A DNA stretch of 64,000 nt, taken from a virus. Positions 26,474 through 26,679 of the stretch are shown here, piece after piece. The translations under genes and the position numbers were made by a program. The notes below the pieces were generated by a model that searched no databases, was not told the DNA's origin, and saw only the letters and a list, made by a program, of their open reading frames with translations. The DNA lies in the IMG/VR virus record IMGVR_UViG_3300029319_000003, positions 120,188 to 184,187 of that record; one strand, given 5' to 3'. Positions within the stretch are counted from its first letter, which is position 1, and the number at the start of each line of letters is the position of its first letter.

Positions 26474-26679
26474 GTACCCCCAGCACCAATTTCGCGGCAT
26501 TTAGGAACTCATTGGGCGTTGCGCCCTCTTCCTTAATCCCATGATGATGGTCTGCATCCCCAAGGCGACTTCTCATAATCAAGCCCCACATCATGGAGTG
26601 CAACCTCGCACCCGGCAGAACCCCCTGTCCCGCAACTCAGAGGATGTGTAGACTCGATAATCGCCGCTGAACGGGGTAC
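26474..26679 (-). ncRNA. Unassigned ~206-nt multi-helix RNA between tRNA-Asn and tRNA-Arg
   Basis: Terminal GTACCCC/GGGGTAC; GGCGATT/AGTCGCC, ATCGAG/CTTGAT, CCTCTG/CAGGGG, GGGTGC/GCACTC, TTGGGGAT/GTTCCTAA, GGGCG-CAA-CGCCC helices; no credible ORF. Confidence 0.6.

Follow-up and report, generated by a model that had tools for sequence, protein, structure and literature searches.

A folded element between two tRNA genes

In the tRNA gene cluster of an uncultured phage, a gap of 218 nt separates tRNA-Asn(GUU) from tRNA-Arg(UCU), and the question raised by this locus is whether the gap is mere spacer or holds an RNA gene in its own right and, if so, of which class. The stretch of DNA analysed here (the window; 64,000 nt) forms the terminal 64 kb of an IMG/VR virus record that measures 184,187 bp and is rated complete. 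The element held in the gap lies on the minus strand, as do all window features given below except where stated. Because its closest cultured relatives, the marine cyanomyoviruses, share only ~45% identity (judged on one neighbouring protein), the source genome is assigned to an uncultured marine T4-like phage.

Six tRNA genes and one tmRNA gene were identified by ARAGORN and Rfam at window positions 25567-28159. Among them, tRNA-Asn(GUU), with an encoded CCA, occupies 26687-26761 and tRNA-Arg(UCU) occupies 26393-26468. The 206-nt element between them (26474-26679) starts with the GUACCCC strand of its closing helix, P1, whose first base (26679) follows the Asn CCA after 7 nt (UUUUCUC), and ends with the GGGGUAC strand of the same helix at 26474, 5 nt (ACCUU) before the first base of tRNA-Arg; the initial annotation had placed the element, its strand and its flanks correctly. 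A weak sigma-70-like promoter at 26871-26900, found by consensus match only (9/12 matches), lies just upstream of a long-armed tRNA at 26771-26868. On the other side, a U-rich tract immediately after the tRNA-Arg CCA (26378-26392) may mark the end of a transcription unit, and beyond it a strong promoter-like site (TTGACA-17-TACATT with TG, 26376-26348) lies in the tRNA-Arg/tRNA-Leu spacer at 26170-26392. Because the weak promoter precedes the long-armed tRNA, while the U-rich tract and then the strong promoter-like site follow tRNA-Arg, the element probably comes third among the four RNAs of a short, presumably co-transcribed unit (long-armed tRNA, tRNA-Asn, element and tRNA-Arg), of which the site at 26871-26900 is the likely start.

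Several further features of this cluster were observed. The 98-nt long-armed tRNA is called Asp(GUC) by ARAGORN and has a long, class II-like variable arm; it falls below threshold with the Rfam tRNA model and scores only 22.7 bits with the tRNA-Sec model. The tRNA-Ile(UAU) at 27455-27549 measures 95 nt, ~20 nt above the usual length, and a similar 93-nt Ile(UAU) adjoins tRNA-Arg in the related contig L131. A one-piece tmRNA at 27825-28159, with the tag ANNNTHFDAVALAA, is overlapped by a match to the Rfam permuted-tmRNA model (28030-28232); one-piece tmRNAs are also present in L003, L009, L015 and L143, and the tags in relatives are of the related form ANNNN.... On the opposite (plus) strand, amid the minus-strand RNA genes, lies an ORF of 186 aa (26894-27454) that carries an HPD motif like that of J domains and for which a peptide-pattern search of IMG/VR returned no relatives. 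The tRNA-Arg/tRNA-Leu spacer also contains a terminator-like hairpin at 26287-26266, and the covariance models of the present element gave no match at 26179-26310 in this spacer.

Compact homologues in marine phages

Searches of a phage collection and of 80 related loci with blastn and nhmmer, using the 218-nt spacer as query, revealed no relatives. A covariance model built from the window sequence and its minimum free energy (MFE) structure (R1), which tolerates large deletions, matched much shorter homologues in the phage contigs L002 and L005, and then in L105; the homologues were detectable only by a covariance model that allows such deletions and not by sequence search. A model of the core (R2), a 12-sequence model (R3) and a degenerate pattern of the invariant strands of the P3 arm, which was scanned over metagenome contigs to enlarge the family, complete the search tools. 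Together, IMG/VR and ocean metagenome contigs supplied 12 distinct members scoring 68.9-118.4 bits, while the remaining pattern matches reached at most 27.6 bits and were clearly protein-coding DNA of GC-rich organisms. The window copy belongs to this family with 96.2 bits under R2 (E 3e-24) and 89.2 bits under R3, the match spanning 26472-26681. The members fall into size variants, a minimal one of 97 nt, a standard one of ~122 nt and an expanded one of 206 nt, the window copy being the largest.

R2 matched 31 metagenome sequences, 20 of which were discarded as coding DNA, and no Rfam match was found at those places; one example among them is an L-Q-A-I-I-D stretch, which we take to be typical of PurN. 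When the P3-strand pattern was applied to 185,579 prokaryote genomes, all 19 matches proved to be coding look-alikes in GC-rich genomes, with neither P1 nor CAGC at the distance expected for the family. As far as that pattern reaches, the family is confined to phages, and within the searches made it appears restricted to uncultured marine T4-like myoviruses; the contig names of the members suggest a marine origin (Tara and other ocean assemblies). The element is present as a single copy in each of three complete carriers (G000, G001 and G044), and the window copy is alone in its 184-kb genome. It was not found in ~45 other related phage records, four of which are nearly complete genomes that were searched whole with R3. 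Accessory genes of the variable tRNA region typically show this combination of a single copy and a patchy distribution, and the element would seem to be gained and lost as they are.

Compensatory changes support a conserved fold

The initial annotation had offered shuffled controls and conserved homologues as tests of its structured RNA, and the two differ in weight. The window copy folds at -85 kcal/mol, which is better than the mean of dinucleotide shuffles (-74.5 +/- 5.1; z = -2.05) but marginally so, as 5 of the 200 shuffles equal it; the opposite strand of the element gives z = -1.45. Fold energy by itself is weak evidence, marginally better than chance, and the comparative evidence is strong. 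In a 12-sequence alignment (A5), which was fitted to the covariance model and is thus biased towards the model structure, 95.1% of cells form standard pairs and both sides change at 19 of the 34 pairs, as against 8.6 +/- 1.8 in column shuffles, none of 500 of which reached 19. When the 3' partners were slid by 1-3 columns, only 4-6 pairs retained a both-side change. In addition, RNAalifold run on a plain MAFFT alignment of seven members recovered P1, P2 and the distal part of P3, with 11 of 33 pairs compensatory.

The support is distributed over three helices. P1 changes on both sides at six of its seven pairs, with 98.8% of cells pairing and up to six pair types per position; the corresponding counts are three of five pairs for P2 and eight of nine for the distal P3 helix (helix 4). 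The base of P3 (helix 3) behaves differently, since six of its seven pairs never vary, the exception being a G.U that becomes A-U in the window copy. Frequent G.U pairs at alignment columns 9:228, 143:223 and 150:216 further identify the strand: because they would be A.C on the opposite one, the transcribed strand is the tRNA strand. With 12 distinct homologues and this degree of covariation, the spacer is best described as encoding a real, conserved, folded RNA of a small family.

Architecture of the element

The core shared by all members (~97-125 nt) is a three-way junction composed of P1, a G-N-W-CAGC junction, the P2 hairpin and a long P3 arm. P1 pairs GUACCCC (26673-26679), supported by covariation in 12 members, with GGGGUAC (26474-26480), which in A5 directly continues the 3' strand of P3 with zero linker. 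J1/2 reads GUUCAGC in the window copy (26666-26672), and the CAGC of its family consensus is invariant in A5. The covarying base of P2 pairs GGCGA (26661-26665) with UCGCC (26564-26568); one of its base pairs is exchanged between A-U and G-C (6 vs 6 members), and the stem of L105 is entirely different. J2/3 (UUGGGGAUG, 26555-26563) is variable in the alignment and ends in R/U-U-G. Column 11 of J1/2 pairs with column 137 of J2/3 in 11 of the 12 members, with four pair types, and we tentatively suggest that J2/3 may pair over a short stretch with the G-N-W-C of J1/2.

The P3 arm (26481-26554) was delimited by covariation together with its invariant base, in which CAGRCCA (26548-26554) pairs with UGGU-G-CUG (26481-26488), leaving one bulged G. 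Beyond this base lies a conserved internal loop, with UCAU on the 5' side and CGAA(A)Y on the 3' side, followed by the covarying distal helix. A side hairpin of P3, GGGCG-CAA-CGCCC (26514-26526), was assigned by its alignment position; most members have AGGG/CCCU there, closing a 7-nt loop U-R-ACA-M-U. The window copy carries every core feature and departs from the family only in the sequence of this side hairpin and in its P2 loop. The loop, which in the other members has 4-9 nt and mostly contains GURGC, is replaced in the window copy alone by a 92-nt insertion (26569-26660; R1 and R2 alignments). The insertion is predicted to fold into an extended stem that has a 7-nt bulge and ends in two hairpins (-37.9 kcal/mol on its own; z = -1.95). 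A second copy carrying it was not found among the 12 members, and the metagenome pattern was one base off the window spacing. This branched insertion would be a peripheral elaboration specific to the window copy.

These assignments revise the helices of the initial annotation. Its closing helix, GTACCCC/GGGGTAC, is P1 and is backed by covariation in the 12 homologues, and its GGGCG/CGCCC falls where most members have the P3 side hairpin. GGCGATT/AGTCGCC holds for its inner five base pairs, which form the P2 base, the support covering this inner part only. ATCGAG/CTTGAT and GGGTGC/GCACTC do occur in the MFE fold, but they lie within the window-only insertion and lack comparative support. By contrast, CCTCTG/CAGGGG is absent from the MFE fold, which has GCGGGAC/GUUCUGC there, and TTGGGGAT/GTTCCTAA clashes with the covariation-supported P3 arm. 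As for the proposed 206-nt unit, a core of ~115 nt is conserved, whereas 92 of the 206 nt are the insertion.

A second pairing is available at the heart of the structure. GCUG in the 3' strand of P3 is complementary to two other segments, the CAGC of J1/2 and the (G)CAG of P3 itself. RNAalifold and six of seven single-sequence MFE folds choose CAGC/GCUG, and the covariance models use CAGRCCA/UGGUGCUG. Covariation cannot decide between them because all three strands are invariant; the RNA may alternate between these two states.

Two candidate tertiary features were examined and rejected. For a kissing interaction of the P2 loop GURGC with the P3 side loop or GCCAU, the complementarity, assessed by eye, is inconsistent; for a K-turn or tandem G.A in the UCAUGA/CGAA loop, the 5'-strand GA is missing in L130 and L131. 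A search within the window for antisense targets of the invariant strand returned none beyond chance.

Genomic contexts across members

Only the window copy has a tRNA on both sides. In four members (L105, L129, L141 and L150) P1 ends 3-4 nt before tRNA-Lys, and with the window copy included the end of P1 lies 3-5 nt before the first base of a tRNA in five members. Six others (L005, L131, L143, L154, L130 and L151) have the element between a 66-aa and an 89-aa ORF, 7-9 nt after the stop of the former and ~17 nt before the latter, and in L002 a 137-nt spacer separates it from tRNA-Gly. The window itself has a homologue of the 89-aa ORF (56% identity) at 54832-55071 (minus strand), 28 kb from the element. 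Since the neighbours change and the fold is kept, the element behaves as a gene of its own. The release at both ends by tRNA processing that was proposed initially applies to the window copy and not to the family, and the processing itself is presumed. In L177, a relative of 200 kb that lacks the element, a plain AT-rich hairpin followed by a U-run (L177:1455-1500) fills the slot that separates the 66-aa from the 89-aa ORF, which indicates that the structured RNA and a terminator-like hairpin are alternative occupants of one site.

Tests against known RNA classes

Rfam 15 (4,227 models, a set that includes 6S, Y RNA/YrlA, riboswitches, self-cleaving ribozymes, GOLLD and ROOL) gave no match in 26469-26686 at the gathering score and none at E <= 10 in a 3-kb search; the models of RNase P, SRP, tmRNA and group I/II introns, which had been set aside on motifs in the initial annotation, likewise gave nothing there. 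The compact homologues in L005, L130, L131 and L154 also had no Rfam 15 match at E <= 10. ARAGORN called seven genes in the window, none of them inside the element, and the Rfam tRNA clan had no match at E <= 10. An intrinsic terminator was likewise not found, as no member has a U-run after P1 and a hairpin scan returned internal hairpins only. With no Rfam 15 match on the one hand and 12 homologues with strong compensatory change on the other, the original proposal of a separate, possibly undescribed RNA class holds up.

A possible role as an autonomous stable RNA

What the RNA does can be read in several ways. The reading we favour, tentatively, is that the element is a stable, autonomous structured RNA that is matured by tRNA enzymes and acts in trans, its processing, stability, trans action and partner all being presumed. 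It would be transcribed on the tRNA strand within the unit of long-armed tRNA, tRNA-Asn, element and tRNA-Arg. An RNase P cut at the first base of tRNA-Arg would make its 3' end, leaving a 5-nt 3' tail, and 3' trimming of tRNA-Asn would free its 5' side. The released RNA would fold as a three-way junction closed by P1, and the invariant CAGC, the P3 base CAGRCCA/UGGUGCUG and the UCAU/CGAA loop would offer a binding surface for a protein or other macromolecule, through which the RNA, as an autonomous accessory module, would exert its effect in trans.

In support of this reading, a closing helix with short tails beside RNase P sites suits a processed stable RNA, and the bulged-G helix, together with the conserved internal loop and the junction, suggests that a protein or another RNA recognises the element specifically. 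However, half of the members are without an adjacent tRNA, and tRNA-linked processing cannot therefore be the general route of maturation. We searched for a partner by comparing the G000 ORFs with those of six whole relatives, of which two carry the element and four lack it. Specific to carriers, that is, to the three element-bearing complete genomes, were nine ORFs; eight of these are without a Pfam domain, and the ninth has a weak match to Peptidase_M78. No RNA-binding Pfam domain was found among the nine, in a test of low power given that the relatives are all ~48% identical to G000. Two further findings speak against the favoured reading: the mutually exclusive conserved pairings of CAGC or GCAG with GCUG hint at a switch and not a static scaffold, and the hairpin in the L177 slot fits a role in cis just as well.

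Such a role in cis is the main rival, although we consider it rather unlikely. The element would then be a processing, stability or insulator block between genes of a polycistronic early transcript, without a role once released, and would block exonucleases and present the 5' end of the downstream tRNA or mRNA to RNase P or RNase E. The element indeed always lies between genes of the same strand, and the placement of P1 just before a tRNA in five members, the simple hairpin with U-run in the equivalent slot of L177 and the failure to find a partner protein among the carrier-specific ORFs (in a low-power comparison) are all in its favour. Yet for this purpose a simple hairpin would suffice, whereas the invariant 7-bp bulged-G helix, the conserved nucleotides of internal loop and junction and the three-way architecture imply specific recognition; further, P1 is not followed by a U-tract, and what lies downstream varies between tRNA-Lys, tRNA-Arg, an ORF and, in L002, the 137-nt spacer.

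The two invariant, mutually exclusive pairings, CAGC/GCUG and CAGRCCA/UGGUGCUG, together with a conservation of junction and internal loop that resembles aptamer or catalytic cores, raise the improbable alternative of a conformational switch. Here the element, either a sensor of a ligand or protein or a small ribozyme that cleaves itself, would control maturation of the flanking transcript through strand exchange. As all three strands are invariant, however, covariation does not separate the two pairings, and no Rfam riboswitch or ribozyme model matched at E <= 10. A classical riboswitch has a constant downstream gene, while the neighbours here differ (tRNA-Arg, tRNA-Lys, the 89-aa ORF or a long spacer), and neither a terminator nor a Shine-Dalgarno-sequestering expression platform was found. 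The hammerhead core motifs CUGANGA and GAAA are absent, J2/3 is variable and J3/1 contains no nucleotides; nested pairing of the HDV-like kind is unsupported, as the outermost strands, 5' and 3', are each other's partners.

A further scenario, which we regard as equally improbable, is a new class of functional phage RNA built on a two-state core of the invariant CAGC, GCAG and GCUG strands. Such an RNA might, as a small ribozyme or a sensor, gate how the adjoining mRNA or tRNA (Lys or Arg(UCU)) matures, or it might be a decoy for a host factor that attacks those tRNAs. It would belong to the accessory cargo of the variable tRNA region and serve in counter-defence.

It is very improbable that the element is a tRNA in decay, what remains of an intron or a GC-rich spacer without function. 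Its GC content of ~55% resembles that of the flanking tRNAs (32-45% in the surrounding coding DNA), and its fold z is only -2.05; but the compensatory changes in three helices, in 12 members from different samples that are not near-identical copies of a single lineage (witness the up to six pair types at one P1 position), effectively refute this explanation, and nothing in the element is recognised by ARAGORN or by the Rfam models of tRNA and group I introns. Finally, a small peptide (M-Q-A/T-I-...) starting at an NUG before CAG(G/A)CC is hardly credible: all 12 members have AUG, GUG or UUG there, followed by the conserved CAGRCCAUCAU, but the frames stop after 9 to >25 codons at unrelated places with no conservation of the downstream peptide, third codon positions do not vary within the conserved block, the changes elsewhere are compensatory ones in helices, and a Shine-Dalgarno sequence is absent.

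Comparison with known systems

If the favoured reading of a processed, trans-acting RNA is right, its maturation has a counterpart in eukaryotes, where the RNase P cut at a downstream tRNA or tRNA-like structure makes the 3' end of the upstream RNA, as in MALAT1-mascRNA. A stable helix likewise stands at the end of the phage element, although an adjacent tRNA is present in only 5 of the 12 members and cleavage is presumed here.

Among phages, the closest parallel is T4, which makes two stable RNAs from its tRNA cluster (PMC3014915), rnaC (species 1, 139 nt) and rnaD (species 2, 119 nt), with roles that are still unknown (PMC3014915; PMC9697503). In T4, rnaD begins 1 nt downstream of tRNA-Arg, and rnaC begins 6 nt downstream of rnaD. 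The window element resembles them as a small structured RNA in a T4-type tRNA cluster that lies on the tRNA strand, abuts tRNA-Arg and is presumably released by tRNA-processing enzymes. Unlike the T4 RNAs, which lie downstream of tRNA-Arg, it lies upstream, and its fold differs. With filters off, the best R2 score in T4 69000-75000 was 6.2 bits, elsewhere in the region, with nothing over rnaC or rnaD. On this comparison, the T4 RNAs are taken as positional analogues and not homologues.

GOLLD and ROOL are phage and prophage RNAs often found near tRNA islands (bioRxiv 10.1101/2024.12.08.627333), and the element shares with them a conserved multi-helix fold, a place near phage tRNAs and the lack of a known protein partner. 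They are, however, 3-8 times longer and form multimeric cages, whereas the core of the element forms a single three-way junction; their Rfam models matched neither the window copy nor the compact homologues. The element is also like the csRNAs of Fremin et al. 2023, which were drawn from IMG/VR with lengths of 29-151 nt and at least three IMG/VR regions each, and of which 8,495 are unnamed candidates (PMC10690425): it, too, is a short, covarying intergenic RNA of uncultured phages from the same data source. The family may be among these 8,495, in which case its entry would be unnamed and uncharacterised. Overall, the element appears to represent a small, apparently undescribed RNA family of a known general kind.

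The value of such a family is tempered by the thousands of candidate phage RNAs already catalogued with no function assigned, and no cultured host-phage pair carries it. At the same time, T4-type phages have yielded neither a functionally characterised riboswitch nor a trans-acting small RNA of characterised function (PMC3014915). The element is the second, unrelated structured RNA embedded in a T4-type tRNA cluster, after RNAC/RNAD of T4, and its natural variants of 97, ~122 and 206 nt show which parts are dispensable. It thus offers an entry point to the questions of why phages put structured RNAs beside tRNAs and whether tRNA-processing enzymes routinely mature other RNAs.
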